From: an uncultured Prevotella sp.
GTDB lineage: Bacteria; Bacillota; Clostridia; Christensenellales; UBA1242
Length of the DNA stretch: 53,721 bases
Direction: 5' to 3'
NCBI GenBank assembly: GCA_964638195.1
Contig: CAZXAV010000001.1
Coordinates: forward strand, 1-53,721
In this document: positions 3,569 to 24,127 of the stretch, piece after piece
Layout of the letters: each line of letters opens with the position of its first letter
Numbering within the stretch: position 1 is the stretch's first letter
The notes under the pieces: generated by a model
What the model saw: the letters and a program-made list of their open reading frames with translations, nothing else
The model's database searches: none
What the model was told of the DNA's origin: nothing
Translations under genes and position numbers: made by a program

Positions 3569-6500
3569 TTATGCCGCGGTCTTTTCCTTTTCTTTGCCCC
3601 AACCGTTGGCATAGACACCGTCACCCAAAGATGCACCGTCCACGGGTGACTTGGTACCGTCATAGTTGTTCCAGAAGTTGGTCACCAAGTAGGTTTTCTT
3701 GACTTCGGTCACACCATCACGTTCCCCTTCCCCGTCGTAAAATTCTTGGAAGTTGCAAATCCAATCCGCTTGTCCGTTCTTCGCCCAGTATTTCATGTAA
3801 TTGAAGTAACCCGCGTAACCATTGGTTTCGGAATAAACCGATTTAATCATTTTGCAGGCTTTTTCAAAATAATCGTACGGAATATATAATTGGGCATATT
3901 TTTTCTCTGGCACATCTTTGATGGTGTACTCGTGGTGTCTGGTCCATTTAATGAACCACCATCCCACGGTATACGGGACACTATAATTAACGTTACTGAT
4001 TTTGGTTTCGTCAAGTGGTAAATAATAACAAGTATTATTCTTGTCTCCAGTATCCTCTGCCGACTTAAAGCCCGCTTTTCGAGTAATATTAGCAAACCAA
4101 CTGGGCAAATCATAAACATCAGATGCAGGTTGATAGCCCACGTATTGCGCCCAACGAATCATGGCATAGGCGGCGTGGCTGGTATCGGTACATTTTTGGG
4201 GAGTGGGTTTATTTTCATACACGGGATTGCCGTTTGCGTCAACTTCTGGCGTTTTTCCATCCTCTTTCATTTTCGGAATCATTTCGCCTTCCGCCAAACC
4301 ACCACAATACAAAGTACAAGCCTTAGCAAATCGTTCGTCTTGAATCAAAGTTTGTGCTTGACCAAAAATCGAATCGACATTATCCAAGCGCACATAACGG
4401 GTTTCGACTTCGCGGAAGTTATAGCGTTCATTGTATTCAAAGCGTTCTTGATAGGGACGTTGATAATCTTCGGGCATCGGGTATTTACAATTGTCATCAT
4501 ATTCATTTTTGTTGTCGACTTTTTTGGTGGTTTGATTTTCACCTTCGCCAACCGTCATATCGGGAATTGGCCAGTCATAATATTTCAGCATGTTCCAATA
4601 GTAATTATCACCATAATTGTCTTTATGATCTTTATAATCCTTGGTACCTTTATAATAATTCAAGGTATAGTTTTTATCAATCAACGTACCCGTTTCTTCA
4701 TCCGACGTTTGTTCACCACTGCTGTAAATTTTCGGGAAGACCGTGGTGCTGATTTGACGTTTGTAAATGGGGGCAACAATCGGGTCTTGTCCCGCGGTTG
4801 AGTTACCAAGTTTTGCCAAATATTCCACGTTGTTTTCGTATTTTTCCATGCGTTTCCATACCGCAAACGCGTCAATGGTCAACCAACCATCGGTTGAGGT
4901 CATGGTTTTGGTCTCACCAGTTTCTTCGTTGGTGTATTCGTATTCACCACGTGCCGCCAAGTACTCGTCACTGTTCGCGTAGATGTTAATCCATTCGCAA
5001 TAATCACGGTAAGTCATAAACGGGATACCGCCTTTGTTGAACCAGTCACGACGGTAGATAATCAAATCCGTTGTACGGTCACCTTGGGTGACACCTTCAT
5101 AGAAAATGTCGGTACGTACGGTTTGGTCCAAAACCCAACGGAAATCGGTAGCACTGTCGGCGGCACCAAAGAATTCGTCTTGGTCCAATTGCTTGCTGAC
5201 GTAATAGACGTAATGGTTCAAACGGAAATATTTGTCCAATTCTACGTTTGTCGTACCTTGTTTAATCACCTTATAATAATACTTTTGTGCCCAAAGGATG
5301 TAATCCGCGGTGGTATGTTCAGATTTCAACAAGGTCAAGAATGCCTCGCGGTCCGAACCAAATTCCATTGCCTCCGCCAATTCATTTTCCGTGGTCACTT
5401 TTTCCAAGAATTCCATTGACCTAGCAGCATATGGGAATGGTTTGCGGAAAGGTGTGTTTTCCACGGGAAGACCCGCCGAAATGGTGGCGTTATCAATCAC
5501 GGTGGTGTTTTCGGCATCCTTGTTGTACAGTTTCAAGAAGACCAAATAATCGGCATAGGTACTGTTCCAGACACCGTTCACGAAACGCGAACCCAAAACG
5601 ATTTTGGTGTATTCATCGGTGGTGAATGGGTCATTGACACTGGCATTGGCGAAACCAGATTTACCGCCGCCCTTATCTTCGGGCATATCCGCAGTCCAGT
5701 CGTCCGCCAAAGTGTAACCAGTTTTACGGTAAGTATACGGTTTTTCGCCACCCGTTGCCAAGACGCGGCTGTCGACGGGGATGGTTTGGGTCATGGCATG
5801 GGCTTTAATTTGGTCAAAGTTTTCGGCGCTGAAACCTTGGTGACGCCACCACAGGACTTCTTCCAAGTAATCGGAGTAATTGGCGCTTGCGTCTTGGCTG
5901 TTATCCGCAATCGTAACGACACGGTTCAAGGTCGGCATAATTTGACGGACAATCTTATAGTAGCCGTTGACATTGCCAGATTCGTCTTTGGAATAGAAAT
6001 CGGGTTCTTCGTTGGCTTCGACTTTGTAAAGCAACAAGATGTCTTTATCGGCGCTACGCGAAGACAATTCACCACCCGTGCTTGAATACACCGCTTTACC
6101 GAACATTTTGTTACCGTCAATATCCACGTACATGGCGGCACCACGATCTTTGGAGATGTCTTCGGACAATTCAATCAAACTGCCCACGGTATAATAGATT
6201 GCACCATCACCGTTGAGGAACTTTGCATTGGGGGTGGTATTAAACGACCAGACACCAACCGGTTCACCCGTCGTCCATTTAGAATCGGAATTGACGTCCG
6301 AAATCCATTGACCTTGGTCAAGAATTTGGGCAGAAGTTTGGTAAACGGCACGGACGTTACCATTGCCCGCAGAACTCAAAATGTTGCCATATGTCGTTGC
6401 CGACAACGCATATTGGAAATCGTACATACCGTCGTCACGTTTGAAGTATTGACGGATAAAGTCGACTTGTTGAGACGTCCAGTGGTATTGTTCGCATTTC

Positions 6501-7880: not shown

Positions 7881-10800
7881 ACTTTCAAGGTGGTGTCACC
7901 GACAATGCCGAATGCGTTAGTAATACCTTCAATGTAATCCGAAGTAGCAAAGTTGGTCGCCGATACGTAACTTGCAATGCCATAAGTCGACGGGAAATTG
8001 ATTTGCAAGATGTTCATGCGGGTTGTGCTGGTACCCGTGAACGAATTGGTGGTGATGGTACTGCGACCGACGATACGACCGAAATAGAAACCAATGTTCG
8101 AGGCTTGCGACGAAGTGACTTGCACGTAACTGTTAAGATTGCTGTGCGTATTGATGGCATTGTTAATGTAGCTGTAATCCCCACTGGCGCCGACGATACC
8201 ACCGATAATGTATTGCAAGTTACTGCTACTTGCCGCCAAGACGTTAACACTGACATTGATGTTTTCAATCACACCACTGTTCAAGTTGTTGTTATAGCCA
8301 TCGTTGAACCCTGCCACAGCACCAACCGTCATACCCCAGAAACGTTTGGTGGGATCGGTGGTATCGGTTGACGGGATGTTACGGAACACGTAGGAAGAAC
8401 CTGCCGAACTGAACACCGACCACTTTGCACCCAAATCCATGGCGGTATAGGTACTGGTTGTGCCGTCCGCGTTCTTGGTGACTTCACCAGAAATTTTACC
8501 CAAGTTGATACCGACCAAACCACCCAAATAATATTTACCAGTCAAACTGCTCAAACTATTCAACTTGGGTTTACGCAATTCAATTGTTTCGTCCATGATA
8601 CCGATTAAGCCGCCCGCAACATTCGCCGAAACGTCTTTTATCGCCCCAGACACATTACGTAAAATGATTTGGTTCGTGTAATACAAACCTTTGGCATTGA
8701 CCACCCTATCGTTAATGACGTTACCCGCTTTGTCTTTCAAGAACCAATTGGCTTCCGAGTTTTGGCTGGAACAGAATTGACGACCCAATTCCGTGCCATC
8801 CGCCGATTGTTTAATAATGGTCTTTTCAAAATTACGGCTGAAAATCGTGACATTGCCTTTTTCGTCCACAACGCGGTAATTGTTGGGGTTGGAAGTAATG
8901 AAACCGAACACACCACCCGCAGTACCGAAACCTTGTTCGTAAGAGATATCCAAGGCTTCAACCTTAGCATACAAAGTTTGGTGATAATATTCGATCCCCG
9001 AACCGAATGGTTCAGCACCAATATCGGTTTGCTGACTGTGGAAATTAGCCGTGACCGATACCGCGCTGTACAAGTTATAATTTTCGACTTTGGAATCGGT
9101 AACCACGTTCAAGCCAACGAAACCACCAACGATGTTCGCACCTTTAATGACGCGACTGCCCGTGACAGAAACGTCGACAAAACTGGTGTTAATGGCAATC
9201 CCCGCAATACCACCGACATAACGTGCGGTCGAGTTAATATTACCGATTTCAAAATTGATATTACGGATAGTTGCATATTCGGTTTTACCGAACAAGCCCA
9301 TGGTTGCCAAATCGTTGGTAACCGTATCCAAACTGATACCGCTCATGGTTAAGCCATTACCTTCAAATGTACCGGTGTAAACAATCTTGTAAGTATCTTT
9401 AATACCATCCAAGGCAACATCATCAACCAAACGCAAGTGGTTATTTTGACGGCTGTTTTCAATGTTAGTCAATGGCGCCGATTCCGCACCCTTATCGGCT
9501 TCGGTTGCTTGTGCGGTTGCCGCATAGACATAATCGTTGAATTGGTCTTTGTTCCAAATTAAGTACGGATTTTTGGCAGTACCGGGGTTATACAAGTACG
9601 GTGACGAGTTCCAAGAATATTTACGGAAACTGATTGCGATGTCGTTTGCCGCACGCAACATCGGACCAACGTCGGTCATCACCCAAATGGTATTGTTCGG
9701 CGAAATGCCCCATGCGCCTTCATCTTCTTGTGCTTGCCCGATTGAGAAGCCGCTGTAATTATTGATGTCGGCATATTTTGCACTGCTATTGTTACTCAAA
9801 CGTCTTAAAGTGGTACCCCAGTCGTCACTGATACTGATACTTTCCGCGTTACCCGCGTAAATCAAATTCGACAAGCCTTTGGAATTGTTGTTCGTTACCA
9901 CAAACGGCGCATAGTAATCCAACGTACCACTACTTTGCAAAATAATGTCATTGTTTTCAATACAGTTAGCGATGTAACCATTAGATGTGTTTTGGTATGC
10001 GAAACCACCCGCCGCACCTTCAGTACCCGTTTTCAAGATGACCATGTTGACCAAACAGTCGGTAATTGTACCACTGTTGATGTGGACGAAACCACCCAAT
10101 GAGTTACGAATGGTCTTTACAGCACCGGCAACCGAGATGTAGTTCAAATTGTTTTCACGTTCGGTTGAACGTCCCATTGCGTAGGATTGTTGAATTTTAC
10201 CAGTATTTTGACCAACGAAACCACCCAACAAACTGGCACCGTTGCTCAAAGAATTTGCATTGGCATTGTTAATAACACTACCGTCACGGAAATAAGTGGT
10301 TGTGATTGTACCACTGTTGACACCAACCACCCCGCCAACGGTCGAGGAAGCCACGTTAACTTGGTCAATATTACCTTCTTCGGTCAGTTGTTCTGGTCCG
10401 TACAATTCCACATCAATCAAGACACGACTGTTGGTAATCATGCGAGTGTTTGAACCAACCAAACCACCCAATACCACCGTAATCACATCACTGTTCGCAT
10501 AGACATACAAGCGAGCTTGGGCTTGGCTGTCAATCGTGGATTTTTTGTTGAATTTCATCGCGCTGTAATCGTCATAGCGCGCCACATTCGTACGGTCGGG
10601 GGTAATCCAGTTGGCTACGTTCATGTAAATATCATAAACAACCTTATCCCATTTACCAGTAACATCATTCTTAGTGACACCGTAACCAAGATTGTTGTAA
10701 ACGTTGGTTATCACTGGTTCACCATCGTTGTTCAAACCAATTTCATAGAAATAATCGTCATCAAATAAGTAACCATCTTTGTTAAATGGCAAGGAATCTT

Positions 10801-13800
10801 CAAAATTGCTGTTCGTTACTGGGTTGACCAATTCGGTCAAGTTTTGCATGTCAAATTGCCATTGCGACAAAACCGCACAGTTAGTAACAATACCATTGTT
10901 AACCCCCGCCAACATACCGATGTTGACAGTACCTTGTTCGTAATTATCCAAATTGACTTCTAAGGTCGTAATCGGTGCAGTCGGCGTGCCATGTTCCAAA
11001 ACAATTTGTAAGTTTTTAACCACTGAACCAGTCGGAATTTCGGTAAACAAACCAATGTTGGTTGGCATAGCGCTTAAATCAAAGCCGTTACTGTTGAAGA
11101 AGATTTTGTAGTTGTTACCATCCAAAGTGGCGTTGGTCGGGAAATCAACTGGTTTCCAATAACCATTGTTCAATTCGGTAATTTTGTACAGATAAATGTC
11201 ACTCATTAAGACATAATCAACACCAGAACTTAATGCCATCAAACGCGCTGCATTTTCTTGAGTAATGAAAACCGTGGATCGGTCACCCGCACTGTCCGCA
11301 ACCGATTTTTGCGTTGTATTGATGGAAATTTGACTGGTAACACGTCGTGCATCTTTTTCGTTTTCGTATCCCGTAACCGCTTGTGCGCCTTCCACATATT
11401 CCTTGCTGAAATCGGTGACTCCGTATGCAATATTGGCAGAAACTTGCATAATGGTCGTAGATGCTTCGGCAGTATCACGTAACAAGTAAGACGTATTATT
11501 ACTGTTATCGCGGTAAAGCGTGTAATTGACTTGATAACCTTCTTGTGGTGTATCATTGATAACCATGTAGGTGTAACCATCACTGATTTTCGGGTCATAC
11601 GTGTTGATTTCAGTTTCCAAACGTTTAATGGCGCTGTTAATGTAATACAATTCATCGACACCATAATAACTTTGATTCAAAGGACCGCTGATAATTTCGG
11701 GTGAGAAATATAATTCTATCGCACTATCATCCAAAGTGATTGAATCCACTAATTCATCACCGACTTTCAATTTCCAATTACGGATTTCAAACAAGACAGG
11801 TTTAATTCGTAACGAATAATAAGCCCAAACAATTTTACCTTCCACAAAGGTGGTATAAGGAATACGGACATCGATCCAGTCGTTCAAGTTACGCGCACTG
11901 GCACGTAAAGTGAATGCCAAGGTTAAATTTTGACGTCCGGGGTTAACCACTTCGTAAGCAAACGATTCGTAACCATGTGCATCACTCTTCAACCCACCGT
12001 TAAAGATTTCAATATTTTCATAATAGAAGACAACGTTCATGTTATTGACGTTTAATGGGTAATTACGTGACGTACCGATTGATTGTAAGTGTTGTGAATC
12101 ATTACCTAACTCAACATTCGCCCAACCGGGGAAATAACTGGTTTCGCCTTCTTGGGTTGTGACTTGAATTTGTACGTTAATAACTTCATCCGTCAACGGA
12201 TTAACACTGCCCAATTTAGGCATACCACCGCTGTAACCGATTTGAATTGCACCATTGATGTAATTCATGGCTGATTTGTCACCAATTTTTTGAATCCAAA
12301 CCATGTCGGCATAAGATTCCAAACGGACGTTGACACCACCCGTACTATTAACAACTTCAAATTTCAAGGTTTCGTTACGGATGGCATTATTCACCGATGA
12401 TTCAAAACTTTGCAACAACAGATTTACCATATTGCGTAAACTGATGTCATCTGAATAAGTGGCATCGACACGTAATTCCAACGCGACTTCACGGTCCGAC
12501 AATCCTAAATCATTGTCTTCTGTTCCCGCCAAATAGAAGCCGTTAACAATGTACATAACAGGTGAAATGTAATAGGTGTAAATGTAATTGGGGTTTGTGG
12601 CATGAGCGTCTTCGGTCGCATATGGGATTCTGATTTCCACAGTGTAATCACGCAACGCGATGACGGGTGCCAAGTTGACCGTTAAAATCGCAGACAATGA
12701 ACCATCTTCACCGTCAACATCACACGCAACGGTGACTAAGTTCGATTGTTCACCTCTTATGGCAATTGGTTTTTGTGTTACTTGATCCACCACTTCGATT
12801 CTGTCGTAGAAAATTTTGGCTGCGTTGGGAATTTCCGCTACGTAAACCGCTTCGGTACCCACCGCTTGCACGGCATAAGCAACACCCGTGCCCAATTCAA
12901 CTTTACCGACTTTATTATGCCATGCTTCTTCGTCATATCCCGTCGAAATCAAAATTTGGTTAGAAATCAAAGTTTTGCTGCTTTCGACTAATTTTGGCAC
13001 ACCGCCTTCGTAAACGATGTAGGATGAGAAGCCAACAATGGTATCGGTTTCGTCGTTTGCCTCAACATTACGTTGTAAATTGAAACCAGAAAGCGTGATG
13101 TAATTACTCATGACGGTGGTTTGAATGTAATCAACTGCCATGCCTTCAAGGTTTGCTTTCGCCACTTCGATTGAATGTTTCAAATTATCATCTTGGGTTT
13201 GGCAAGCATTGATGCGTGCCACATATTTAATGATTGTGACTGGCGAACTGTAAGTCGTTAACAACAAATAATCGTTGTAAACTGAATCACTAATCAAACC
13301 AGTATCCCCCACACCTTCAATGGTCCACCCCGTCAATTCAAACAGTAAAGGTGTAATTTCGATACAATGACTGTACCAAACATCTTTATTATTGACCGAA
13401 GTCAAATACGGGATATAAATGCGAATCGTATTCGACAAATATTTAGCATCGGCTGCTAATTGAATTTGCATGGTATTTTTAGCCGAATCAACCAAGATGC
13501 TGATTCCTTCGTAAACTTGCGTCGTACCTTCCGCAGATTTGTCAAACGGAGTCAACAAACTACCCGCATTTTCAACCCATAAATATTGATAGAATGCTTG
13601 TCCCTTGATATTTTTCAAGGTGTAAACTTTTGTACCGCCGATAATTTGGTTGGCTTTAGTTGAACCCATCACGGTCGGATGTTCGGGTTTTGGCATTTGC
13701 GTTGACGACCAAACACGATAGGGAATAATGCTTTCCACAACGTTGCGTTTATCGTTGGTGATTTCCACAACTTCTGGATAACCATCGGCTTTGTAATTGA

Positions 13801-16800: not shown

Positions 16801-19800
16801 GCCGAATAACCTTGCCGATTAAATTAGAAGTTTCCGTTAAAGCAACTTTAATGCGACGTGCGTTCGTGCGATCTTCTTCAACCCACCATTCGGCATTTTC
16901 GCCACGGATAAAGGTTTTCCAATTTTCTTTACCTTCGGCATCATAGCCCGTGCTGACCTTGATGCTTTCAAATTTGCGGTTAACATTATAAATGACTTCT
17001 TGTCCCAAGGCTTGGGCTTTGGTATTTTCGGGCGTACCGTCAATCAAAATGTAACGGTATGTATTTTGGACGGTTGCAGCACTGTTCGCTAAGTTTGTCA
17101 AACTTGGCACACCACCATCATAGTTGATACCCGCCAACAAGGTAATGAACCCCGCATCATCAATGCGTGATACCAAACCAGAACCGTTCAAAGATTCGGC
17201 AAAGTCATTGATGGCTTCGTCAAAATCAAAGTCGGTGTATTGATTGCTACGGCTGTAAACGAAATCTAACTGCAATTTTGATAACCAATTCGGCACACCA
17301 GTTTGGATCATCACTGGTACTTCATCGACGTGGTCCGCCAACAAAAGTTGATCCACCGTGAAGTATGCCGGAATAATGTTCAAGGCATACATCAAAGCAC
17401 CTTCTTGGCTGTATGCCATAATGACCAAGACTTTATCAAACAAGTCCGTGGTTGGGTTTAAGGTGACCGAAACAACCCCAGATTTAACATTGAAGATTGC
17501 GTTCCAACCAGAATTTTGTTCCCAAACATAATTGCCGTCAGTGCGAATTTCGTATTTATCCAATACTGAATCAAACGCAACACCGGGGAGCGAAATGTTA
17601 TAACGTACCGTCGTGCCAATGGCTTGTGCAATTTTACGAGTACGTCCATTCGGTGCTGTTCCCAAATCAATGGAGGTGTCACCGACATCACCCGCATCAG
17701 AACCAAAAGTACGTACTGGTAAATAAGTTGAAATTTGGTTGCCCGTACGGTTTAAGGTCGGAATCCCATTGACATAAGTAATACCCGCCGTAATCAATAA
17801 ATAACTGGTTGCCGTAACGGGGTTCGCACTGTCGGCACGCGTAATTGCACGTGTGCTAGGGTCAAAATTAAAGTTCAAAATACCGTCATCATTCGAGATA
17901 CGATTGAATGCCAACGCAGCACTGTTCGACAAGTCATTTTGTGCGTTTAACAATTCCATGTTGAAAGTATTGATTGCAGTGGTGACATCACTATCATCGG
18001 CACAACTGATGCCCCCCGCTTCCACTGTCAACGTTGTCGGGGTCGTCAATGCTACGATTGGTTTCACGGGGTTGTTTTGTAATTTGAAATCGGTAAAGGT
18101 GAAATAAACTGGGATAATGGTTAATTCTAATTGCGGCGTGATGGTATCCGAAGTCGAATAAACTTTTACCACAATTTTGCCCGCATTGATTAAGGCTTTG
18201 TAAGCCGCATTATCGGAAACGGTTGAACTCTTATTTTGCAAATCAATGGTAATAGTAACATTGTTGCGGTCGCGTGTTTTAATGTCATAGTCCCAGAAAT
18301 CAGCAATTTTGGCATCGTTATCAACATTTTTATCCGCAATGTACAACTTGCTAGCATACATTGAATCCCAGTTGTAGAACGTGTAGGTTGCGGCTGTACC
18401 AACCGCCAAATATTCGGTACGTTTTACTAACGGTTTCGTTTCGGTCACATCATAATAGAAAGTGCGGGCATAACGGCAAGTACCATTTTTGGTCAGCACT
18501 GGTACCCCACCAATGTATGAATAAACAATTTGCACCGTAACTTGTCCTGCCGTTTCATAGTTGCATGACACCAAATTGGAAGTTTGCAAACTGTTGTTAA
18601 AGGTGGTCATTTTTTCGTTCAAGCTGCTGCTCGACAAACTGGTATCGTAGTCGAACAAACCACGGTATTTCAACTTGGTTAATTCGTCACGCGAAGCCAG
18701 TTGCAAACGGGTTTCGTAATGACCAATAACTTCCAAACTGTCAAATTCAAAATAAACGGGTACAATCACCACACTGAGATAGGGGTTGATATAATCACCC
18801 GCACGACGGTATGGAATACGAACTTCCAACGATGCCCCGATGGCGGCAATGTCGGCTTTCAAATAAACAGACAAAGTTTGTGCAACCGTATTGATTGTCA
18901 CTGTGGCATAAGTTGATTCAATTGTTGTTGAAGTTGTGGTGACACCATTGAAACTGAAATCTGCATAATTCGGCACACAACCACTGGGCAAAGTAACATC
19001 ATAAACAGCCGTTGTTCCCAAAGCTTGGTATTGGGTTTGAACCATTGTGCAAACCGCATAGTCTTCGGTTTGGTCATCGGGGTTAATGACAAAACTGTCG
19101 CGGTATTTCGCATCCAAAGTCATGTTTTCCACAATCGCTTTGGCATTATTTTCGCCTTGGATTGAAATGCTGATGCCGAAACGGGTGCCGTCTGCCAAAC
19201 GGTGCGTAACTTGGGTGTCGCATAAGATGTAAGTACGGAAGTAATATTTGCCGTTCCATTTGTAACCTTCTGCCGCCGACCAAGATGATACCATTTTCGG
19301 TGTATTACTGTTGCTGAGATACGGTTGATAGTATTTTTCGGTTTCGTTGTAAATCATTTGAGTGAAACCAATTGTGTACTTCACCGTGTCGTAAATCGGT
19401 TTACCAGTCAAGTCAGTACCAATCAAAACTTTTTCTTCATGTGCTTTTGAAGTCCACAAATTGATTGACGAAACGTTGATATAATACGGGGTCGGGTAAA
19501 TTACCAAAATACCGCCCACCGAATCTTCGTCGAGATAAATAATGCCCGTATCGGTTTGTCCCGTAGCCAAGGTTAAGGCACTTTTGTTGGTTTCAACCGC
19601 ACTGGTATCAGCAAAATGCGCCATGGTCACATTGTAAATACCTTGTTTGTAAAGGTTGAATGCTGCTGAATCACTGGCTGGGGTTTTAACGTTTAACAAC
19701 GGCGAACCAGTCAAATTTTCTTGCACGAACAAACGCGCACCAGAAATATCATAGAACGGGTCAACATCGGGGGCAACAATCACCACTGCTACTTCAATTT

Positions 19801-22800
19801 TCAAATAATAAGTGTAATAGAAATTTGACTTAACCCCACTGCTAGGATTCAAGCAAGTCAATTTGAATTCTAATTTGGCTTTACCGCCTTCCATGTTGAC
19901 ATAGGAAACCGTTTTGTCGTCTTCAAACAAGGTGTAATAAACGCCGTCGTACAAGAAGTTATACGTCAACAAACTTGGTGACCAACTGGATTGGTCGACA
20001 CGCATGGTCAAATCGTAAGTTGCCGTGGTAACACCATCCAAAGTCACCGCGTCTTGGGCAATGTTCAAATAATTGACCCCACCCTTTACATTGACTTTGA
20101 CCGTGGCGGTCAAGACATCCATCACAAAGGTATAGCCATCAAATTCAATGTACGGGAAGAACGAATATGTGCCACCATCATAGGTAACAAAGGAGGTACT
20201 TGATTCTTCGGCGGAGTCAAAACCATGGTTATCGAATTTCCAACCCGAATTGATATCCAAATTCGTGTTAAAGGTAAAGGGATTACCACGTTGCATAGTG
20301 ACGGTATCCAACGCGTTCGTATATTCGTTGGGTGCCAAATTCTTACGTGATACCAAACCACTACCGCTTTTGCTGTTAATTTTTACTTCAAAGGTATCCA
20401 AGCATTGAACCACATAGAAATACAAATAAGTGTTTTTTGCAAGTACCTCAAAATAAACTGTCGTTTGATTGTCACTGCAAGCAGCACCATTATCATCTTT
20501 ATCGAAAACATAATCCAAATCAATGTAGTTGCGACCATTGGAACTATTTTGTCTATACTCTTCCCCAATTTGTCGCTTGACACCATTTTCAACCACGTAT
20601 TTAGAAATCCAAACGGTGTCTTCAATCAAACGTGACCAACCAAGCACCGTGTATAAATCATCCAAATAATAACGGTTGGCTTCAATTTGAGAATTGTATT
20701 TATGTCCGTCTTTGGTGTAGAACAAGATTGCATGGGCATTGTCATTTTGACCAGCCACAACCCAGTTATAACCACCTAAATTATTGCGTTTTCCACTGTT
20801 CGCATCATGCGTGTTGTTGTAATTATTTAATTCATCAATGGTACTCTTGATGTCACTTTCACTGCCGATGTAAAGCGTCATGATTTCATAAACATCGGGG
20901 AAAACCAAGTTTTCGCCCGCCGCGTTCGTACCGACATAGCGCAAACTGTCGCGTGTGTAAATCACTAACGCATAAACGCCCATACTCTTTGCGTCTTCGG
21001 TTGGCGTAACATAAATTTTTCCAGATGCGGAATCCAAACGTGCGGTTGCGACTTCATCAATTGACAAAGTGGCATTTGCCGCGGTCGGCACAAAAGCCGA
21101 TAAATCAAATTTACCATTTTTCCATTTGGCAAACGTAATACCGAAATCTTTGTAATTCGCGTTATTGGTGGCTTGGAGATTGATTGCCGCGTTAGTAACT
21201 TTACCAGAACTGGAAATCAATTCCAAATAGTTACCCAAACTGTCACTGTTGACAAAACCATCAACCAAGTTAACCGCATTTGGTTTTGTGTTGTTAATTG
21301 TGACGTTAACGGTCACCACAGCACCCGCGATGTAATAGAACTCAAATGGTTCGTCGGGTGTCAATTGACCTTCGCCGTTCAAATCAAAACCCGGGAATTC
21401 ATAACGTTTGTAAATTTTGAAACCAACCGTGAAAGTTTCGTCAGTCAAGTATTGAGCAGTAACAGTAAATTGGTTTTTCGCATCTCCCCTTTCAACTGTG
21501 ACGTTTTCGTTGAGTGGTTGTGCAACATCAATGTATAAATAAGTGTCATCGGTAATCGGTTTGTCGTCCAAAGAGGTCATGTTCAAGATAATTTCACGGG
21601 AATCGTTAATTCCATCTAAATCAACACTCATCGGCTGCGGAGTTACGTTACCCACGGGATCAACCACAATCACGTAAACCGTAACTGTGGTTTCATTACC
21701 TTCATAAACCGCATCACTGTAAGCATGTAAACTTACTTTACACTCGTACAAACCTTCTGCCAAATTACGAGCATCAATCATGTTGGTTTGGGTGTTGCTA
21801 ATCAGATTGCCTTTCGCATCACTGATTTGGTCGAACACTGCATACGCACCAACACTGGCACCGGGGGTGTTAATCGCAAATTCATAAGTAAAACCTTTAC
21901 GCACGTAAACGGTACGGACGTAATCGTAATGCGTATGATAATTATCGGTTAAGGTTTGATAAATTTTACCACGGCTGCTGCTGACAACGGACATAGACAA
22001 AGATTCCACGGTTGGGTAAACACGGATGTAGAACGTGTAAGATTTACCGTTGGTATATTCCACGGTCATGGGATAATCTTTATAATATTCAATTATGTCA
22101 ATGTTGTTAGCGCTAATGGTATAACGCATGTGGTAATAGCCCGCTACCCCGTTGTTTTCAAATTCGACATCAGGAACACATTGAATATTAAACGGCAGTT
22201 TTTCGCTGTTGTCCGAAACTTTAGCAGTGTTCCATTTTTGGCTATATTCATAACCAACACCATCGGCATTAGTTAAAGCATACATACCATAAACATCAAC
22301 GCTCTTTGAATTAAAGGTTTGATGCAACGTGTCATAAACCAAAGCCACACCCCAAGCACCATCATCAAATTGTACTAAGTTAGTGACTTCAAATTTATCA
22401 ATGGCACTGGTGACATCCAATTTAATATCACAAGAAGCCTTATCACCGTTAGTCAATGTGTATAAACCTTTGACACGCAAAATCATTGACGTGATATTAG
22501 CCCCCAAGAAGGGATGCGCAATTCCAGTTTGGGCGAATGCCACCGAGAAGCGGTTCAAATAATTGGCATAATATTTGCCTTCCGTTCCTTCCAACATCAC
22601 CCAATCATCAATGGCGTCTGACCAGTAACCGATTTGCAAAATGCTGTACAAGCTGAATTGGGTATTGCCGTTAGAGGTTTTAATTACGGGGTTCTTGGTT
22701 TTATCCCAACCGTAAGTTCCCGTATAAGTGCCGTACTTATCTTCAACAATCAATTCAAATTCAACATCGGCATCCGCGTTAACCGTCTTGCCATTTCCCG

Positions 22801-24085
22801 TATCCAACGCGAACACGTCATAGTAACCACTGACATAAGCACCTTGGTTGCTTTCGTAATAGAACGCATCCAAAGTTTTTTTACTGGGGACTAAGTTGTA
22901 TGATTCCGGACCATAGACTTCGGTTTCGCTGTCCGCATAAAATTCGTTACGGATACGCAGATAAATGGTATCTTTCACTTGAACATTGGCATCCGTAACA
23001 TCATTGTAATAAATTTCTTTGCCGTTAATTTTGACAATCGGATATGCGGTAATGTTAATTGCCACTTCCCCAAGATTTTGTGCCGCTTCTAACGAACGTT
23101 GGTATTGGTCAACGTAGTTAACGCGCACCATTTTAGTATCCGCGCTTTCAGCTTCAAAGCCATAATCGGAATATGCTGTTTTTTCACAATCCAAAGCAAA
23201 TGAGAAATTCGCACTGGACCATTCCGTGCGATTGGCAACCAAATCCCAAACATTATCATATGCCGCAGTTGTTTCGGCTTTGTGGGCATCCGTCTTTACT
23301 GTAATTTTATTAACCTTCGGGAAAACGTAGAACGGAACATCAATCCAGTCTTCCATTGCGGGCAATTTGGCTTGCAATTCAATGTATTGGTCAACGCAAG
23401 TGGCTTTGTCCGTCACCGTCAAGAGACCTTGCTCCAACGTGACACCCGTGTAATTTTGTTTCAAACGGTATTCAACGGGGAATTTATTCGGGGTGTAACT
23501 GCGTTCATCGTCATCGGGGTGCGCATAGAAAACAAACTTACTCAAAATATCCGCCGAAGTTAAATCCAAAGACGGTCCACCTTGACGAATACCAAAGTGC
23601 GATAAAGCACCCAGTTTCATATCCTTAGCGACCAAATTGACCGTAACATTAACCGTCACAGTTTGTCCGCCCATAACTGAAAACGTCATGGCTACGGGTG
23701 CACCGCCGTCTTTACCCGTCACCCTAAAAGTGGTCGCACCGGCGGCTTGGTCGAACGCAACTTCTTCTACGGTAACAATCCCGCTGCTGATTGAGCTTTC
23801 GTTTAACTTAACTAAACGACCCGCCGTTCCCGGCAAGCCGCCCACAGTGATGGTAAATTCAGCCGACGAATACGGGGTTTCAACTATGCGGAAATTTTTA
23901 TCCGATGTTTCATCTTTAATCAGTTCGATTTCCAAATTGATATCGGACTTATCAACCGAAACTGTGATACTGCCATAAACATCGGTTTGACGTTCGGAAT
24001 TTTTGAAAGCGAAAATAACACCAAAAACCGCGGCAACGGCAATGACGCTAACGATAAACAAACTGATCAGACCGCGTTTTTTCAA
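3569..24085 (-). CDS. Giant (6,838 aa) N-terminally membrane-anchored, repeat-rich cell-surface protein of unknown function
   Basis: This is a single uninterrupted 20,517-nt ORF. TTG start at 24083-24085 is preceded by GGGGGA with a 7-nt spacing. The N-terminus 'MKKRGLISLFIVSVIAVAAVFGVIFAF' is one TM or signal-anchor segment. It is followed by beta-rich Ig-like segments, a tandem module array, two GLUG-motif modules and an aromatic-rich C-terminal region. There is no C-terminal TM or LPXTG. Confidence 0.85.
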   Translation of the reverse strand: MKKRGLISLFIVSVIAVAAVFGVIFAFKNSERQTDVYGSITVSVDKSDINLEIELIKDETSDKNFRIVETPYSSAEFTITVGGLPGTAGRLVKLNESSISSGIVTVEEVAFDQAAGATTFRVTGKDGGAPVAMTFSVMGGQTVTVNVTVNLVAKDMKLGALSHFGIRQGGPSLDLTSADILSKFVFYAHPDDDERSYTPNKFPVEYRLKQNYTGVTLEQGLLTVTDKATCVDQYIELQAKLPAMEDWIDVPFYVFPKVNKITVKTDAHKAETTAAYDNVWDLVANRTEWSSANFSFALDCEKTAYSDYGFEAESADTKMVRVNYVDQYQRSLEAAQNLGEVAINITAYPIVKINGKEIYYNDVTDANVQVKDTIYLRIRNEFYADSETEVYGPESYNLVPSKKTLDAFYYESNQGAYVSGYYDVFALDTGNGKTVNADADVEFELIVEDKYGTYTGTYGWDKTKNPVIKTSNGNTQFSLYSILQIGYWSDAIDDWVMLEGTEGKYYANYLNRFSVAFAQTGIAHPFLGANITSMILRVKGLYTLTNGDKASCDIKLDVTSAIDKFEVTNLVQFDDGAWGVALVYDTLHQTFNSKSVDVYGMYALTNADGVGYEYSQKWNTAKVSDNSEKLPFNIQCVPDVEFENNGVAGYYHMRYTISANNIDIIEYYKDYPMTVEYTNGKSYTFYIRVYPTVESLSMSVVSSSRGKIYQTLTDNYHTHYDYVRTVYVRKGFTYEFAINTPGASVGAYAVFDQISDAKGNLISNTQTNMIDARNLAEGLYECKVSLHAYSDAVYEGNETTVTVYVIVVDPVGNVTPQPMSVDLDGINDSREIILNMTSLDDKPITDDTYLYIDVAQPLNENVTVERGDAKNQFTVTAQYLTDETFTVGFKIYKRYEFPGFDLNGEGQLTPDEPFEFYYIAGAVVTVNVTINNTKPNAVNLVDGFVNSDSLGNYLELISSSGKVTNAAINLQATNNANYKDFGITFAKWKNGKFDLSAFVPTAANATLSIDEVATARLDSASGKIYVTPTEDAKSMGVYALVIYTRDSLRYVGTNAAGENLVFPDVYEIMTLYIGSESDIKSTIDELNNYNNTHDANSGKRNNLGGYNWVVAGQNDNAHAILFYTKDGHKYNSQIEANRYYLDDLYTVLGWSRLIEDTVWISKYVVENGVKRQIGEEYRQNSSNGRNYIDLDYVFDKDDNGAACSDNQTTVYFEVLAKNTYLYFYVVQCLDTFEVKINSKSGSGLVSRKNLAPNEYTNALDTVTMQRGNPFTFNTNLDINSGWKFDNHGFDSAEESSTSFVTYDGGTYSFFPYIEFDGYTFVMDVLTATVKVNVKGGVNYLNIAQDAVTLDGVTTATYDLTMRVDQSSWSPSLLTYNFLYDGVYYTLFEDDKTVSYVNMEGGKAKLEFKLTCLNPSSGVKSNFYYTYYLKIEVAVVIVAPDVDPFYDISGARLFVQENLTGSPLLNVKTPASDSAAFNLYKQGIYNVTMAHFADTSAVETNKSALTLATGQTDTGIIYLDEDSVGGILVIYPTPYYINVSSINLWTSKAHEEKVLIGTDLTGKPIYDTVKYTIGFTQMIYNETEKYYQPYLSNSNTPKMVSSWSAAEGYKWNGKYYFRTYILCDTQVTHRLADGTRFGISISIQGENNAKAIVENMTLDAKYRDSFVINPDDQTEDYAVCTMVQTQYQALGTTAVYDVTLPSGCVPNYADFSFNGVTTTSTTIESTYATVTINTVAQTLSVYLKADIAAIGASLEVRIPYRRAGDYINPYLSVVIVPVYFEFDSLEVIGHYETRLQLASRDELTKLKYRGLFDYDTSLSSSSLNEKMTTFNNSLQTSNLVSCNYETAGQVTVQIVYSYIGGVPVLTKNGTCRYARTFYYDVTETKPLVKRTEYLAVGTAATYTFYNWDSMYASKLYIADKNVDNDAKIADFWDYDIKTRDRNNVTITIDLQNKSSTVSDNAAYKALINAGKIVVKVYSTSDTITPQLELTIIPVYFTFTDFKLQNNPVKPIVALTTPTTLTVEAGGISCADDSDVTTAINTFNMELLNAQNDLSNSAALAFNRISNDDGILNFNFDPSTRAITRADSANPVTATSYLLITAGITYVNGIPTLNRTGNQISTYLPVRTFGSDAGDVGDTSIDLGTAPNGRTRKIAQAIGTTVRYNISLPGVAFDSVLDKYEIRTDGNYVWEQNSGWNAIFNVKSGVVSVTLNPTTDLFDKVLVIMAYSQEGALMYALNIIPAYFTVDQLLLADHVDEVPVMIQTGVPNWLSKLQLDFVYSRSNQYTDFDFDEAINDFAESLNGSGLVSRIDDAGFITLLAGINYDGGVPSLTNLANSAATVQNTYRYILIDGTPENTKAQALGQEVIYNVNRKFESIKVSTGYDAEGKENWKTFIRGENAEWWVEEDRTNARRIKVALTETSNLIGKVIRLGIFVNNNDDEPSYILNVVPAYFTVEGLTLAGQNNDDHDIYLYYGEDPDSPAGVVFDAVFGEYSVNAALSIPSRLAAFRNELQNSKAHLIGRYFDTDLMSGDLRVTVYLDYQNGNPTLVESSAADSTFVIRLDVDFTYTIYGKPAAESEYPPMPTGPRTRTEVQAIGTTSSYTIDLDKTVSMDVEDLSFDEAKLAARGWKVTFEDNVVTVELLPEAAEVLLANDIVLNFYNGYNLLFVLTIQPVLFEVVGVETVYPEQPVNLIGIKESDVEYRAIVKYNDTVNYNGTNVISFVEAFNTSLNAAKGSLVEIENDGQYLKVDFAVDYGTAGSTNRTVPTLLNVANYPLNVIESYIKYTTSEISTSATHYQAVGTTEYYHLGAGFADAIDTIPEINVYNVDGVKQTFSDINEYVTAAVVKYGNSYALQVCLKPQGVLVEDRIDFVIAQGAKTFTMTVKPVWFLVEGFDVVNHPERHMWIIAAGKSPEKISDLSFRVRARYTTSNLLATDIQTRLNTFNQQLADSTAWAKYLETYTIGGEYLVVRAAIEYDENGVANIIDIDQAKPTQIVRDVFKYACYSDKVVGTGIAYPSIPRSRTVDLTIGYDAVYTLDMPNLLTGFTNDMYALYENDDAANADDDSKLKPYTNGSDGWRVEARGNKLYVALDPNADLVNRELKVFVYYNRNNVTNKPDSYDADNVAFILTIHPVWFKVTDFALTGYPNDEIYVDTIDGFMTELTKIDSGKKFVPVFEYSDEILNSNEILAQTENTVGATLQTLMDDFTKEFLYSPYVSKTRTRENPHTYHFQVTTSVAYQAFTGTAILTDETANRIWKTYKIVVKEDANDGVAENELRVEHQAIGTAKTYYLDSSVLDGVTSINNGTNYTITWDQANKNYVTVELSSDVVVNSPIEIAINANYTLKIYPVYYEILGFETVQHPERPVWVISPYSTEDLQYRAITSDLTKLSANDLTNAQADLEAFNAYLNNGAPVSITLDSNQYIVFDAAVNYKADGYPEVVEITNDKRNVVESIIPYRVWSSTQMPKPEHPTVMGSTKANQIIGGTKVYTLKNIKGQAFYQYLWVENAGSLLTPFDKSAEGTTQVYEGISILVDSAKNTMQIQLAADAKYLSNTIRIYIPYLTSVNNKDVWYSHCIEITPLLFELTGWTIEGVGDTGLISDSVYNDYLLLTTYSSPVTIIKYVARINACQTQDDNLKHSIEVAKANLEGMAVDYIQTTVMSNYITLSGFNLQRNVEANDETDTIVGFSSYIVYEGGVPKLVESSKTLISNQILISTGYDEEAWHNKVGKVELGTGVAYAVQAVGTEAVYVAEIPNAAKIFYDRIEVVDQVTQKPIAIRGEQSNLVTVACDVDGEDGSLSAILTVNLAPVIALRDYTVEIRIPYATEDAHATNPNYIYTYYISPVMYIVNGFYLAGTEDNDLGLSDREVALELRVDATYSDDISLRNMVNLLLQSFESSVNNAIRNETLKFEVVNSTGGVNVRLESYADMVWIQKIGDKSAMNYINGAIQIGYSGGMPKLGSVNPLTDEVINVQIQVTTQEGETSYFPGWANVELGNDSQHLQSIGTSRNYPLNVNNMNVVFYYENIEIFNGGLKSDAHGYESFAYEVVNPGRQNLTLAFTLRASARNLNDWIDVRIPYTTFVEGKIVWAYYSLRIKPVLFEIRNWKLKVGDELVDSITLDDSAIELYFSPEIISGPLNQSYYGVDELYYINSAIKRLETEINTYDPKISDGYTYMVINDTPQEGYQVNYTLYRDNSNNTSYLLRDTAEASTTIMQVSANIAYGVTDFSKEYVEGAQAVTGYENEKDARRVTSQISINTTQKSVADSAGDRSTVFITQENAARLMALSSGVDYVLMSDIYLYKITELNNGYWKPVDFPTNATLDGNNYKIFFNSNGFDLSAMPTNIGLFTEIPTGSVVKNLQIVLEHGTPTAPITTLEVNLDNYEQGTVNIGMLAGVNNGIVTNCAVLSQWQFDMQNLTELVNPVTNSNFEDSLPFNKDGYLFDDDYFYEIGLNNDGEPVITNVYNNLGYGVTKNDVTGKWDKVVYDIYMNVANWITPDRTNVARYDDYSAMKFNKKSTIDSQAQARLYVYANSDVITVVLGGLVGSNTRMITNSRVLIDVELYGPEQLTEEGNIDQVNVASSTVGGVVGVNSGTITTTYFRDGSVINNANANSLSNGASLLGGFVGQNTGKIQQSYAMGRSTERENNLNYISVAGAVKTIRNSLGGFVHINSGTITDCLVNMVILKTGTEGAAGGFAYQNTSNGYIANCIENNDIILQSSGTLDYYAPFVVTNNNSKGLSNLIYAGNAESISISDDWGTTLRRLSNNSSAKYADINNYSGFSIGQAQEDEGAWGISPNNTIWVMTDVGPMLRAANDIAISFRKYSWNSSPYLYNPGTAKNPYLIWNKDQFNDYVYAATAQATEADKGAESAPLTNIENSRQNNHLRLVDDVALDGIKDTYKIVYTGTFEGNGLTMSGISLDTVTNDLATMGLFGKTEYATIRNINFEIGNINSTARYVGGIAGIAINTSFVDVSVTGSRVIKGANIVGGFVGLNVVTDSKVENYNLYSAVSVTANFHSQQTDIGAEPFGSGIEYYHQTLYAKVEALDISYEQGFGTAGGVFGFITSNPNNYRVVDEKGNVTIFSRNFEKTIIKQSADGTELGRQFCSSQNSEANWFLKDKAGNVINDRVVNAKGLYYTNQIILRNVSGAIKDVSANVAGGLIGIMDETIELRKPKLNSLSSLTGKYYLGGLVGINLGKISGEVTKNADGTTSTYTAMDLGAKWSVFSSAGSSYVFRNIPSTDTTDPTKRFWGMTVGAVAGFNDGYNNNLNSGVIENINVSVNVLAASSSNLQYIIGGIVGASGDYSYINNAINTHSNLNSYVQVTSSQASNIGFYFGRIVGRSTITTNSFTGTSTTRMNILQINFPSTYGIASYVSATNFATSDYIEGITNAFGIVGDTTLKVQTMTIDEYRDYLLTYIKTRDLVTRMEMLEPWLRSIPTTLSTNTIDGQDVRVEKFAPNGKNELLKWINDNNVFETWDTAHSALKGRAAGNYERYIEYSAISTRPAGNGEDGESENEFVKNIETYRANRRAIAQVLFTYQYNVTTNSQTIAGTQNANFTWTQYENYLVLKQFASAIDMEATEYTNLYRALASKYSTRLADMVYPYALAVEYTAQDGNIRISNNKDFIELVKNMSDSKQYTNQDPLQIYINYVNELDSEDNAFRVNSGWQMSLAQYYYYMTHMYGKTDYKYTDKTSATSVSYTYSVPRDFPATGDKGYVSYLYLNSMMETSSGMLLTVPEFIFMMANEEAVVMKNEEAWVKTGHLASEGGGGARISDIGGITLKWISDPLGWYLVADEVVSENGVISYGDNHWTALENYLSAKISHGLSIAKYKEMIGMGGSLNALLKRTPSWDAVDNYIFELKCEQYHWTSQQVDFIRQYFKRDDGMYDFQYALSATTYGNILSSAGNGNVRAVYQTSAQILDQGQWISDVNSDSKWTTGEPVGVWSFNTTPNAKFLNGDGAIYYTVGSLIELSEDISKDRGAAMYVDIDGNKMFGKAVYSSTGGELSSRSADKDILLLYKVEANEEPDFYSKDESGNVNGYYKIVRQIMPTLNRVVTIADNSQDASANYSDYLEEVLWWRHQGFSAENFDQIKAHAMTQTIPVDSRVLATGGEKPYTYRKTGYTLADDWTADMPEDKGGGKSGFANASVNDPFTTDEYTKIVLGSRFVNGVWNSTYADYLVFLKLYNKDAENTTVIDNATISAGLPVENTPFRKPFPYAARSMEFLEKVTTENELAEAMEFGSDREAFLTLLKSEHTTADYILWAQKYYYKVIKQGTTNVELDKYFRLNHYVYYVSKQLDQDEFFGAADSATDFRWVLDQTVRTDIFYEGVTQGDRTTDLIIYRRDWFNKGGIPFMTYRDYCEWINIYANSDEYLAARGEYEYTNEETGETKTMTSTDGWLTIDAFAVWKRMEKYENNVEYLAKLGNSTAGQDPIVAPIYKRQISTTVFPKIYSSGEQTSDEETGTLIDKNYTLNYYKGTKDYKDHKDNYGDNYYWNMLKYYDWPIPDMTVGEGENQTTKKVDNKNEYDDNCKYPMPEDYQRPYQERFEYNERYNFREVETRYVRLDNVDSIFGQAQTLIQDERFAKACTLYCGGLAEGEMIPKMKEDGKTPEVDANGNPVYENKPTPQKCTDTSHAAYAMIRWAQYVGYQPASDVYDLPSWFANITRKAGFKSAEDTGDKNNTCYYLPLDETKISNVNYSVPYTVGWWFIKWTRHHEYTIKDVPEKKYAQLYIPYDYFEKACKMIKSVYSETNGYAGYFNYMKYWAKNGQADWICNFQEFYDGEGERDGVTEVKKTYLVTNFWNNYDGTKSPVDGASLGDGVYANGWGKEKEKTAA
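7900..9580 (-). other. GLUG-motif beta-helix module 2 of the giant protein
   Basis: The entry signature is 'YTGTFEGNGLTMSGISL...MGLFGKTEYATIRNINF'. It is followed by GG-hydrophobic-G repeats: 'VGGIAGIA', 'VGGFVGLN', 'AGGVFGF', 'AGGLIGIM', 'LGGLVGINLGKISG', 'GAVAGFNDG', 'IGGIVGASG'. Confidence 0.6.
9640..11275 (-). other. GLUG-motif beta-helix module 1 of the giant protein
   Basis: The entry is 'FITQENAARLMALSSGVDYVLMSDIYL...WKPVDFPTNATLDGNNYKIFFNS...IGLFTEIPTGSVVKNLQI'. The repeats are 'LGGLVGSNTRMITNS', 'VGGVVGVNSGTITTTYF', 'LGGFVGQNTGKIQQSYA', 'LGGFVHINSGTITDC' and 'AGGFAYQNTSNGYIANC'. The exit is 'NTIWVMTDVGPMLR'. This is the classic GLUG-type pattern (GGLVG.N.G.I.NSYA). Confidence 0.6.
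11300..19510 (-). repeat. Protein-level tandem array of at least 11 divergent 209-263-aa bipartite modules inside the giant ORF
   Basis: A boundary motif h-x-I-x-P-[VAL]-[YWLM]-[FY]-x-[VFIL] recurs. Its Pro codon lies near nt 18762, 18112, 17371, 16744, 16077, 15436, 14695, 14047, 13351, 12563 and 11799 (spacings 627-788 nt). A degenerate copy 'VIYPTPYYINV' lies near 19490. Each module also carries an 'xFNxxL' helix, a 'GG[VI]P.L' turn and a 'QA[IV]GT..xY' strand. The DNA copies are too diverged for nucleotide repeats. Confidence 0.7.
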
Positions 24086-24127
24086 ATGTTTTCCCCCAAT
24101 GTTTTTCTTCTATTCTAGTATGTATAA

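Follow-up and report, generated by a model that had tools for sequence, protein, structure and literature searches.

Background

Giant surface proteins of 10,000-30,000 amino acids (aa) have already been described in Clostridia of the mammalian gut and interpreted as adhesins; their building blocks are RCC1, Listeria-Bacteroides repeat, YG-repeat, dockerin or LRR domains (10.1101/2023.11.21.568195). Here we analysed a stretch of 53,721 nucleotides (nt) of contig CAZXAV010000001.1 (assembly GCA_964638195.1, positions 1 to 53,721, forward strand; hereafter the window), deposited as an uncultured Prevotella sp. and placed by GTDB in the Christensenellales (UBA1242). The minus strand of the window carries, from 24085 to 3569, a single gene for a protein of 6,838 aa, which we call the giant. 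It is no one-off, and actually belongs to a conserved family of proteins of 6.5-7.0 thousand residues, found in a clade of uncultured gut and rumen Clostridia and syntenic with the gene of RecD2. With the giants described before (10.1101/2023.11.21.568195) it shares the provenance from mammalian-gut Clostridia, the nature of a repetitive surface protein of several thousand residues and the presumed role in adhesion; nevertheless, their RCC1, repeat, dockerin and LRR domains are absent here, and both the module type and the tail are peculiar to this family. Giant surface proteins are common in gut Firmicutes, so that the finding adds to an established theme and opens no new one.

Regarding the other described systems, the RTX adhesins (SiiE, LapA, MpIBP) have a similar layout, with an N-terminal anchor, an extender of many immunoglobulin (Ig)-like domains and non-repetitive binding domains near the C-terminus, and they fall in the same size range (5,000-15,000 aa). 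However, the giant has neither RTX nonapeptides nor a type I secretion signal or type I secretion genes, and it stands in the context of a monoderm Firmicute. Furthermore, the repeats of the RTX adhesins are near-identical and variable in number, whereas the giant has bipartite modules, around 25% identical to one another and fixed in number, which do not belong to the Big families of Pfam. Ebh/Embp and the LPXTG-anchored adhesins of MSCRAMM type are likewise very large, acidic, exported and rod-like, with a repeat stalk on the Firmicute surface. The giant differs from them in lacking LPXTG, a C-terminal transmembrane anchor and FIVAR, GA or DUF1542 domains, and its polarity is the opposite, the only hydrophobic segment being N-terminal.

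The GLUG surface proteins of Firmicutes, in which PF07581 (Glug) is found together with PF05342 (Peptidase_M26_N), share with the giant the rung motif GG[LFIV][VA]G.N.G.I and their characteristic header. The same pair of domains is present in the N-terminal region of the streptococcal IgA1/Zmp proteases. Nevertheless, the GLUG part represents only about 17% of the giant, and its remaining zones (the N-zone, the modules and the tail) have no counterpart in those proteins. Compared with the M26 IgA1 metalloendopeptidases (ZmpA/B/C), the giant has neither M26_C nor HExxH, and its match to Peptidase_M26_N is below threshold (16.2 against 27.7 bits, over model positions 199-250 only). Finally, it lacks the SLH and CWB2 modules by which the S-layer proteins of Firmicutes are anchored to the wall.

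The gene and its signals

The open reading frame (ORF) runs on the minus strand from a TTG start to one terminal TAA (3569-3571) with no internal stop, and occupies 38.2% of the window. The computed mass and pI of its product are 762 kDa and 4.6. There is an in-frame TAG 9 codons 5' of the TTG and no other canonical start in between. A Shine-Dalgarno sequence, GGGGGA (24092..24097, minus strand), can be read directly 6 nt before the TTG (24083-24085). Further upstream, a sigma-70-type promoter (TTGACT-17 nt-TATAAT, 24128..24156, minus strand), which matches 11 of the 12 consensus positions, sits in the 86-nt gap that follows the stop of an upstream 519-aa ORF. At the other end, an intrinsic terminator (3527..3557, minus strand) begins 11 nt past the TAA; 6 of the 14 pairs of its stem are G-C, and a T-rich tail follows. 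Its stem is flanked by an A-run at the 5' side and a T-run at the 3' side, therefore it can be used by both convergent genes, namely the giant and the gene at 2521-3507.

The GC content of the gene is that of its flanks. We found no DNA repeats of 30 nt or longer inside it except for one weak pair, and the modules are only about 25% identical to one another at the protein level, so there is no repeat that could have collapsed during assembly. A collapsed repeat was one of the risks raised in an earlier note on this DNA, made from the sequence alone. The same note had reported the uninterrupted 6,838-aa frame, its 38% share of the window, the TTG start with its ribosome-binding and promoter signals, and a bidirectional terminator. 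We could read all of them at exactly the coordinates given there, and the frame is further borne out by the collinear homologues and the RecD2 synteny described in the next section. The gene is thus genuine and conserved, and is not an assembly artefact.

A conserved family in gut and rumen Clostridia

Searching one genome per GTDB species with the adjacent RecD2/YrrC gene (284-2497) gave 21 loci. Nearly all of them are metagenome-assembled genomes (MAGs) labelled Clostridia or Eubacteriales, and their sources are the rumen, caecum or rectum of ruminants, the mouse gut and other animals. Wherever a locus extends far enough upstream, it has a stop-free frame of 2,272-2,958 aa between the locus edge and a stop just before RecD2, and these frames align with the C-terminal 2,300-3,050 aa of the giant at 40-64% identity. 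More than 12 related, independent loci carry a stop-free 3' half of the giant beside RecD2, and the frames that reach the edge of such loci measure 2,400-5,951 aa. The closest locus (L001, JAMPCO010000002.1) has a RecD2 94% identical and a giant 64% identical to those of the window. It was deposited as 'Prevotella sp.', and two more of the loci (L012 and L017) are labelled Prevotella and Treponema; as the gene content of these three contigs is of Clostridia type, they were probably mis-binned in their MAGs. The labels of this lineage point to Christensenellales or Eubacteriales.

We also made an exhaustive HMMER search with the tail as query against 1.84 billion representative proteins. It retrieved 13 representatives, all with E-values of 1e-15 or lower and all of them members or fragments of the giant's own family; nothing more distant was found among these proteins, where the tail occurs in no other architecture and never alone. 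Four of the homologues are full-length, with 6,926 (P0001), 6,890, 6,535 and 6,970 aa, and their identities to the window protein are 62/40%, 48%, 36% and 34% respectively, the two figures for P0001 reflecting that its tail is 40% identical, against 62%. All four align collinearly with the window protein over its full length, N-terminal hydrophobic segment and C-terminus included. In addition, a metagenome locus has a stop-free frame of 5,951 aa that covers aa 1178-6838 of the giant. Even the two most similar homologues share only 74% identity, and the synonymous sites are saturated.

A word-indexed search of 5.8 billion proteins returned no match for the tail and a single fragment for the tail profile, very long proteins being seemingly poorly covered there. 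These nulls count for little, because at least 13 clusters, with four full-length proteins among them, emerge from the exhaustive search and the GTDB loci. On the same family evidence, a reading of the tail as an 'orphan' is rejected. A metagenome scan with the N-terminal 700 aa gave no match.

The zones of the protein are not equally conserved. The GLUG zone is the most conserved one (60-86% identity to the homologues, with up to 86% at aa 4801-5000), the N-zone (42-79%) and the modules are intermediate, and the tail, with 36-54% against 54-79% for the GLUG zone, is the least conserved and fastest-evolving. The same gradient appears between the window and the closest genome, where RecD2 is 94%, the GLUG zone 79% and the tail 54% identical. 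Being the most conserved part, the GLUG zone, rather than the tail, is arguably the functional core.

We found one distant relative, of 3,627 aa and 21-31% identity, in a metagenome locus (L024, 2249-13129, plus strand). This protein has the N-terminal hydrophobic segment, the N-zone and, joined straight to the latter, the GLUG zone; modules and tail are both missing. It matches the giant at aa 5-382 and 1098-1835. A gene of the SPFH/Band 7 type lies upstream of it, at L024 1330-2235. Because the N-zone and the GLUG zone are joined there in the absence of modules and tail, they appear to be the ancestral core, to which an 11-module stalk and the tail would have been added in the giant's clade. 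Regarding the taxonomic range and the separate occurrence of the zones, two checks that the earlier note had proposed, the tail is thus confined to the giant's family, and the N-zone and the GLUG zone do occur without modules and tail.

Architecture of the giant

The Pfam and NCBIfam scans, which were run on the giant in five overlapping pieces, yielded only a borderline GLUG match, a sub-threshold Peptidase_M26_N and a trace of VCBS. The four-zone architecture outlined in the earlier note stands; so does its statement that the whole protein fits no characterised family, as no match in Pfam, NCBIfam or PDB goes beyond GLUG, be it for the zones, for the family profiles A1 and A2 or for any member of the two alignments.

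The N-zone (aa 28-1681, around 1,650 aa; 19043..24004, minus strand) is non-repetitive, acidic and rich in T, N and Y, and it is shared with the L024 relative. It has no Pfam or NCBIfam match beyond the VCBS trace, which is shorter than a domain, and hidden Markov models (HMMs) of the half-modules detected no cryptic extra modules in it. It may be Ig-like, as the earlier note had it.

The stalk (aa 1682-4266; 11288..19042, minus strand) consists of 11 tandem bipartite modules of 200-265 aa each. We defined the modules by self-BLAST and by the motifs QAxGT and xPV[YWL]F, followed by alignment. The first of these motifs opens an Ig-like half and the second opens another sandwich half, which carries one helix. 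HMMs of the two halves, built from the window protein and its homologues, gave 11+11 full-length matches with independent E-values from 1e-13 to 4e-36, all of them within aa 1682-4266. Where the earlier note had counted at least 11 modules, the tandem bipartite modules are thus there and their number is exactly 11, as it is in each of the four full-length homologues. Since the number is kept at 34-62% identity, the array is old and fixed in number. This is a difference from many adhesins, whose repeats are near-identical and variable in number.

We modelled module 5 with AlphaFold2, using the 11 internal copies as alignment, and obtained a mean per-residue confidence (pLDDT) of 85.5 and a predicted template-modelling score (pTM) of 0.82. 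The model shows two beta-sandwiches with one long helix on the second. Its best Foldseek matches in PDB were titin Z1Z2, EA1, SbsC, LigA, protocadherins and DSCAM, with E-values of around 3e-4 to 1e-2 and a template-modelling score of only about 0.25 over the whole model, which is as low as expected for two generic Ig-like domains set at a different angle. From this model we predict with confidence that each module consists of two Ig-like sandwiches, 22 in total.

The GLUG zone (aa 4267-5400; 7886..11287, minus strand) has two GLUG/Peptidase_M26_N-like modules, at about aa 4270-4830 and 4830-5400. Each has a header of the form 'I-T-x-x-x-L...DY-L-x-DI-L...DGNN/EGNG-x-x-I...GLF', followed by GG[LFIV][VA]G rungs, 11 of which form two clusters (aa 4540-4700 and 4958-5300). 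The Pfam family Glug is just above its cutoff on the window protein (20.7-22.1 against 20.5 bits) and matches 9 of the 12 homologous GLUG zones, with a best E-value of 5.8e-8. By its score above the gathering threshold the giant qualifies as a GLUG-motif protein, and the modules are predicted to be beta-helix-like. The two GLUG-type modules named in the earlier note are recovered both as rung clusters and by Pfam. A profile search with the zone reaches 'GLUG motif-containing proteins' that have PF05342 and PF07581, some of them fused to RHS/YD-shell or TSP3 domains. The family profile has no relative in PDB.

The tail (aa 5401-6838; 3572..7885, minus strand) is non-repetitive, rich in W and Y, helix-rich with a mixed alpha/beta character, and lineage-specific. 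Its content of W, Y and F is 14.4%, against 10-13% elsewhere in the protein, and W alone accounts for 2.4% against 1.0%. Neither BLAST nor block-wise hhalign detected internal repeats, which agrees with the 1,440-aa aromatic-rich, non-repetitive tail of the earlier note. A helix motif, T-x-x-[DE]-Y-x-x-[YW]-[LI], was tried as a cryptic repeat and rejected, because the hhalign probability did not exceed 8.9%, over about 23 columns. The tails of the 13 family members all lack a Pfam match, and neither the single sequence nor the family profile retrieved a relative from PDB. AlphaFold2 on aa 5639-6838, with an alignment of 11 sequences, reached a pLDDT of only 42, and Foldseek on this low-confidence model returned noise (best E-value 0.97). 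The earlier note had proposed structure prediction with Foldseek for every zone; what it gave is thus a confident pair of Ig-like sandwiches for module 5 and noise for the tail.

Within the tail, a conserved island (aa ~6340-6460; 4706..5068, minus strand) reads ...FxTxRDYCEWINIY...WLTI(D/E)AFAVWKRMEKYENNVEYL...AP(I)xKRQISTTVFPK..SSG, that is, an invariant ...AVWKRMEKYENNVEY... helix followed by ...KRQISTTVFPK.... Its mean identity across 12 loci is 73% at aa 6400-6450, and the runs of invariant columns in the tail alignment (A1) are W1001-Y1022 and I1036-G1057. Aromatic residues and Gly make up most of the invariant positions of the tail, which marks these positions as structural. The island is followed by a hypervariable, indel-rich segment (aa ~6461-6740; 3866..4705, minus strand), with an occupancy of 0.40-0.69 and an identity of 17-37%. 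This segment holds a CxxxCGG...C....H cluster, which some homologues, P0003 among them, do not have; 7 of the 32 Cys of the giant lie at aa 6533-6777. The giant then closes with a conserved C-terminal block of about 100 aa. In P0001, a low-complexity insert of around 70 aa rich in Gly, Ser and Pro (residues ~5520-5590) is found at the junction of the GLUG zone and the tail (window aa ~5420, nt ~7825). Standing exactly at the junction, this linker marks the tail as a unit that folds on its own and is flexibly tethered.

Export and anchoring

The hydrophobic segment (aa 1-27; 24005..24085, minus strand) has a KKR n-region and 22 hydrophobic residues, and ends in ...G-V-I-F-A followed by F. Residues 6-27 are the only strongly hydrophobic stretch of the giant (Kyte-Doolittle 2.93, against at most 1.73 elsewhere), in line with the single transmembrane helix that the earlier note had placed at residues ~7-27. 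Directly after the stretch, G(-5), [VI](-3), A(-1) and F(+1) are conserved in every homologue. The segment itself is kept together with G(-5), A(-1) and F(+1) in the homologues P0001, P0003, P0004 and P0008, and the L024 relative is similar, with VLA before S. Signal-peptidase I sites show this same pattern, G(-5)...[VI](-3)-x-A(-1), and residues 1-27 may be either a Sec signal-anchor or a cleavable signal peptide.

The giant ends in ...GWGKEKEKTAA and has no hydrophobic segment in its C-terminal 6,800 aa. There is no LPXTG at the C-terminus, the single match to LP.T[GAS] being at aa 84; the RTX motif GGxGxD (GG.G.D) and the metalloprotease motifs HExxH and HxxEH are absent from the 6,838 aa. 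Pfam and NCBIfam gave no RTX (HemolysinCabind), RHS/YD, SLH, nonribosomal peptide synthetase or polyketide synthase domains, and in Pfam neither SLH nor CW_binding_2 matched any zone at E-values up to 0.1. The earlier note had listed much the same absences, including that of a C-terminal transmembrane helix, and they hold by motif, by hydropathy and by domain scans. Cytoplasmic domains were not found either with Pfam and NCBIfam. Because of the conserved N-terminal hydrophobic segment, the overall composition, which is acidic and rich in T, N and S, and this lack of cytoplasmic domains, we infer that the giant is a Sec-exported surface protein.

Proposed function and alternatives

We propose, with moderate confidence, that the giant is a fibrillar adhesin-like surface protein made of an anchor, an extender and a binding end. 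Its tandem stalk of Ig-like modules, 11 in number and supported by the well-scored model of one of them (pLDDT 85.5), is what it has in common with the class of the fibrillar adhesins. Export, anchoring, extended shape, adhesion and the identity of the distal end are all properties that we infer from the features described above. The N-terminal hydrophobic segment would carry the chain across the membrane and, in the version that we prefer, would stay there as a type-II anchor. The N-zone and the 11 modules, with their 22 Ig-like sandwiches, would form a long, acidic, rod-like extender, whose module zone would measure around 90 nm at some 4 nm per Ig domain. The two GLUG modules and the fast-evolving tail would lie at the far end. 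There they would bind a partner that varies and may be, for instance, another cell, host mucus or glycan, or plant particles. It is because the tail diverges fastest, has a hypervariable insert and, in P0001, is preceded by a flexible G/S linker that we consider it a candidate for an exposed ligand-binding tip.

Several points weigh against this proposal. The conserved G(-5)..A(-1) followed by F is compatible with a cleavable signal peptide; cleavage would remove the N-terminal anchor, and the protein would then be released or held by its other end. Furthermore, neither Pfam and NCBIfam nor motif searches found a recognised adhesive domain, carbohydrate-binding module or anchor motif. What suggests a binding tip is evolutionary rate and nothing else, and the tail model has a pLDDT of 42. 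Finally, conservation peaks in the GLUG zone, so the key activity could be there, and possibly be enzymatic, rather than in the tail. The N-terminal anchor with a distal C-terminus, as the earlier note had it, is thus only one of two possible topologies: the sole hydrophobic segment is indeed N-terminal, but a cleavable signal peptide would also explain the conserved residues.

The second topology is the reverse one, in which a Sec signal peptide is cleaved, the C-terminal tail is held non-covalently on the wall or on an adjacent lipoprotein, and the N-zone is distal. The conservation of G(-5), [VI](-3), A(-1) and F(+1) in all the homologues, with VLA before S in L024, is what we would expect from it. 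Regions rich in W and Y at the C-terminus are a common non-covalent wall anchor in Gram-positives, as in the choline-binding, GW and WxL modules. Moreover, a convergent lipoprotein gene is always found beside the end of the gene that codes for the tail. However, SLH, CW_binding, GW, WxL and LysM have no Pfam match in the tails of the 13 members, and the tail lacks repeats, whereas most wall-binding regions are repetitive. As the fastest-evolving zone, with a hypervariable insert, the tail also fits an exposed tip better than a buried anchor, and the L024 relative has no tail and yet has the N-terminal segment. We therefore regard the reverse topology as unlikely.

The giant might otherwise be a surface-tethered enzyme, presented by the stalk, with its catalytic part (a polysaccharide lyase or hydrolase, or something protease-associated) in the GLUG/M26_N-like zone or in part of the tail. 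The GLUG zone is the most conserved one, reaching 86% identity at aa 4801-5000. Right-handed beta-helices are a common scaffold of polysaccharide-active enzymes, and Peptidase_M26_N normally precedes a metalloprotease domain; both facts speak for an enzyme. Nevertheless, HExxH is missing, and Pfam and NCBIfam found no Peptidase_M26_C and no glycoside hydrolase, polysaccharide lyase or carbohydrate esterase family. The family profile has no PDB relative, and the invariant residues of the tail, mostly aromatic or Gly, look structural. An enzymatic role appears improbable to us.

Quite improbable, too, is a role as an envelope-structural element or spacer, that is, an S-layer-like coat, a sheath or a cell-cell tie of fixed length, in which the 11 modules serve as a ruler. 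The module number is the same in the four full-length homologues in spite of identities of 34-62%, and the Foldseek matches include the S-layer proteins EA1 and SbsC. However, these matches are of the generic tandem-Ig kind (E-values of about 1e-3, template-modelling score about 0.25), the modules that anchor S-layers, SLH and CWB2 among them, were not found, and a fast-evolving tail is unexpected in a purely structural element.

We give very little credit to a contact-dependent polymorphic toxin, whose stalk would deliver a variable C-terminal toxin and whose neighbouring gene would confer immunity. A hypervariable segment does lie near the C-terminus, a fast-evolving small gene does adjoin, and some distant GLUG proteins are fused to RHS/YD-shell (P0025). 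Nevertheless, the variable segment lies inside the tail and is followed by ~100 conserved C-terminal aa, and the 13 aligned members have homologous, collinear tails with no swapping of cassettes. Pfam showed no RHS/YD, LXG, VENN, FHA or known toxin domain, and the neighbour is convergent and predicted to be an exported lipoprotein, not a cytoplasmic immunity protein encoded on the same strand.

Lastly, that the ORF is chimeric, mis-assembled or just a spurious long frame can practically be discarded, given the full-length collinear homologues in independent assemblies, the RecD2 synteny kept in more than 12 loci, the lack of DNA-level repeats in the gene and the intact start, Shine-Dalgarno sequence, promoter and terminator.

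Genomic neighbourhood

The flanks look like a Firmicute chromosome, with RecD2/YrrC, Mini-RNase III, an RlmB-type SpoU methylase, a small sigma factor, a UvrA-like protein, Ppx/GppA and a polysaccharide flippase. The window has no tRNAs. No secretion-system, sortase or mobile-element genes adjoin the giant, and no type I secretion genes (ABC transporter, membrane fusion protein, TolC) were found among the 20 neighbouring ORFs scanned. We also searched for aa 4270-6838 by tblastn, which gave no match in 50,697 phage records and only one short GLUG match in 72,556 plasmids. Thus, with no mobile-element genes in the flanks either, a phage or plasmid origin was rejected.

The gene convergent with the giant (2521..3507, plus strand) encodes a predicted lipoprotein of 328 aa, with a signal peptide that ends in a lipobox-type Cys (...SSAVMGTG-C), which we associate with the giant only tentatively. 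In each of the 11 related loci checked, one or two convergent lipoprotein-like genes occupy the slot between the stop of the giant and RecD2. There is a single one, for instance, in L001 (8900-9955) and L003 (8781-9959), and two in L008 (7443-8861 and 8927-10024), L011 (7899-8948 and 9017-9997) and L014 (7906-8901 and 8980-9948), all of them on the minus strand in the orientation of the locus. Their identity to the window copy is 24-37%, so that they diverge faster than the tail of the giant, and no Pfam or PDB match was obtained for the lipoprotein-like gene. This lipoprotein may be a partner of the tail. More speculatively, and we consider it improbable, tail and lipoprotein could be a co-evolving pair for recognition or docking on an 11-module ruler stalk, the tail being a new fold family with a new type of partner. 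Possible roles of such a pair are self or kin recognition between cells, or the capture of the fibre tip back on the membrane.

On the other side, directly upstream of the giant's promoter, the 519-aa ORF (24172-25731, minus strand) has an N-terminal transmembrane helix followed by short repeats rich in G, N and V; these have a beta-helix or bactofilin/DUF4097-like look and no Pfam or PDB match. Farther away there is an ORF of 2,646 aa (28588-36528, minus strand), with an N-terminal signal-like segment, a C-terminal transmembrane helix with a basic tail and no Pfam family. It is codirectional with a gene for a coupling ATPase of VirD4/TraG type (36601-38595, minus strand; T4SS-DNA_transf, 1.9e-49) and lies 73 nt downstream of it; the window has no other genes of type IV secretion or conjugation. 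An ORF of 895 aa (41029-43716, plus strand) has an N-terminal signal and a C-terminal transmembrane anchor and no Pfam family either. As judged from these predicted segments, the other large surface proteins of this organism (2,646 and 895 aa) would use C-terminal transmembrane anchors, unlike the giant. None of the ORFs of 2,646, 895, 519 and 328 aa is similar to the giant. Between the two loci of giant proteins lie two tandem, overlapping genes for CAAX/Rce1-like (CPBP) intramembrane proteases (26133-27209 and 27199-27813, both on the minus strand), with a divergent metallo-beta-lactamase-fold gene (27799-28587) beside them.

Significance

This work defines a previously unannotated family of surface proteins of 6.5-7.0 thousand residues, confined to one clade of uncultured gut and rumen Clostridia. 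Around 83% of each protein, namely the N-zone, the bipartite module and the tail, falls outside all the curated domain families. The tail may hold new folds, since its 1,440 conserved residues were placed neither by sequence profiles nor by AlphaFold2 run on the alignment at hand. Furthermore, a fixed number of modules is unusual for adhesins based on repeats, and it leads to the hypothesis that length matters. If the giant is the main long surface fibre of these bacteria, it would be a candidate means of attachment to feed particles, mucus or partner microbes, and also a likely target of phage and of host immunity.

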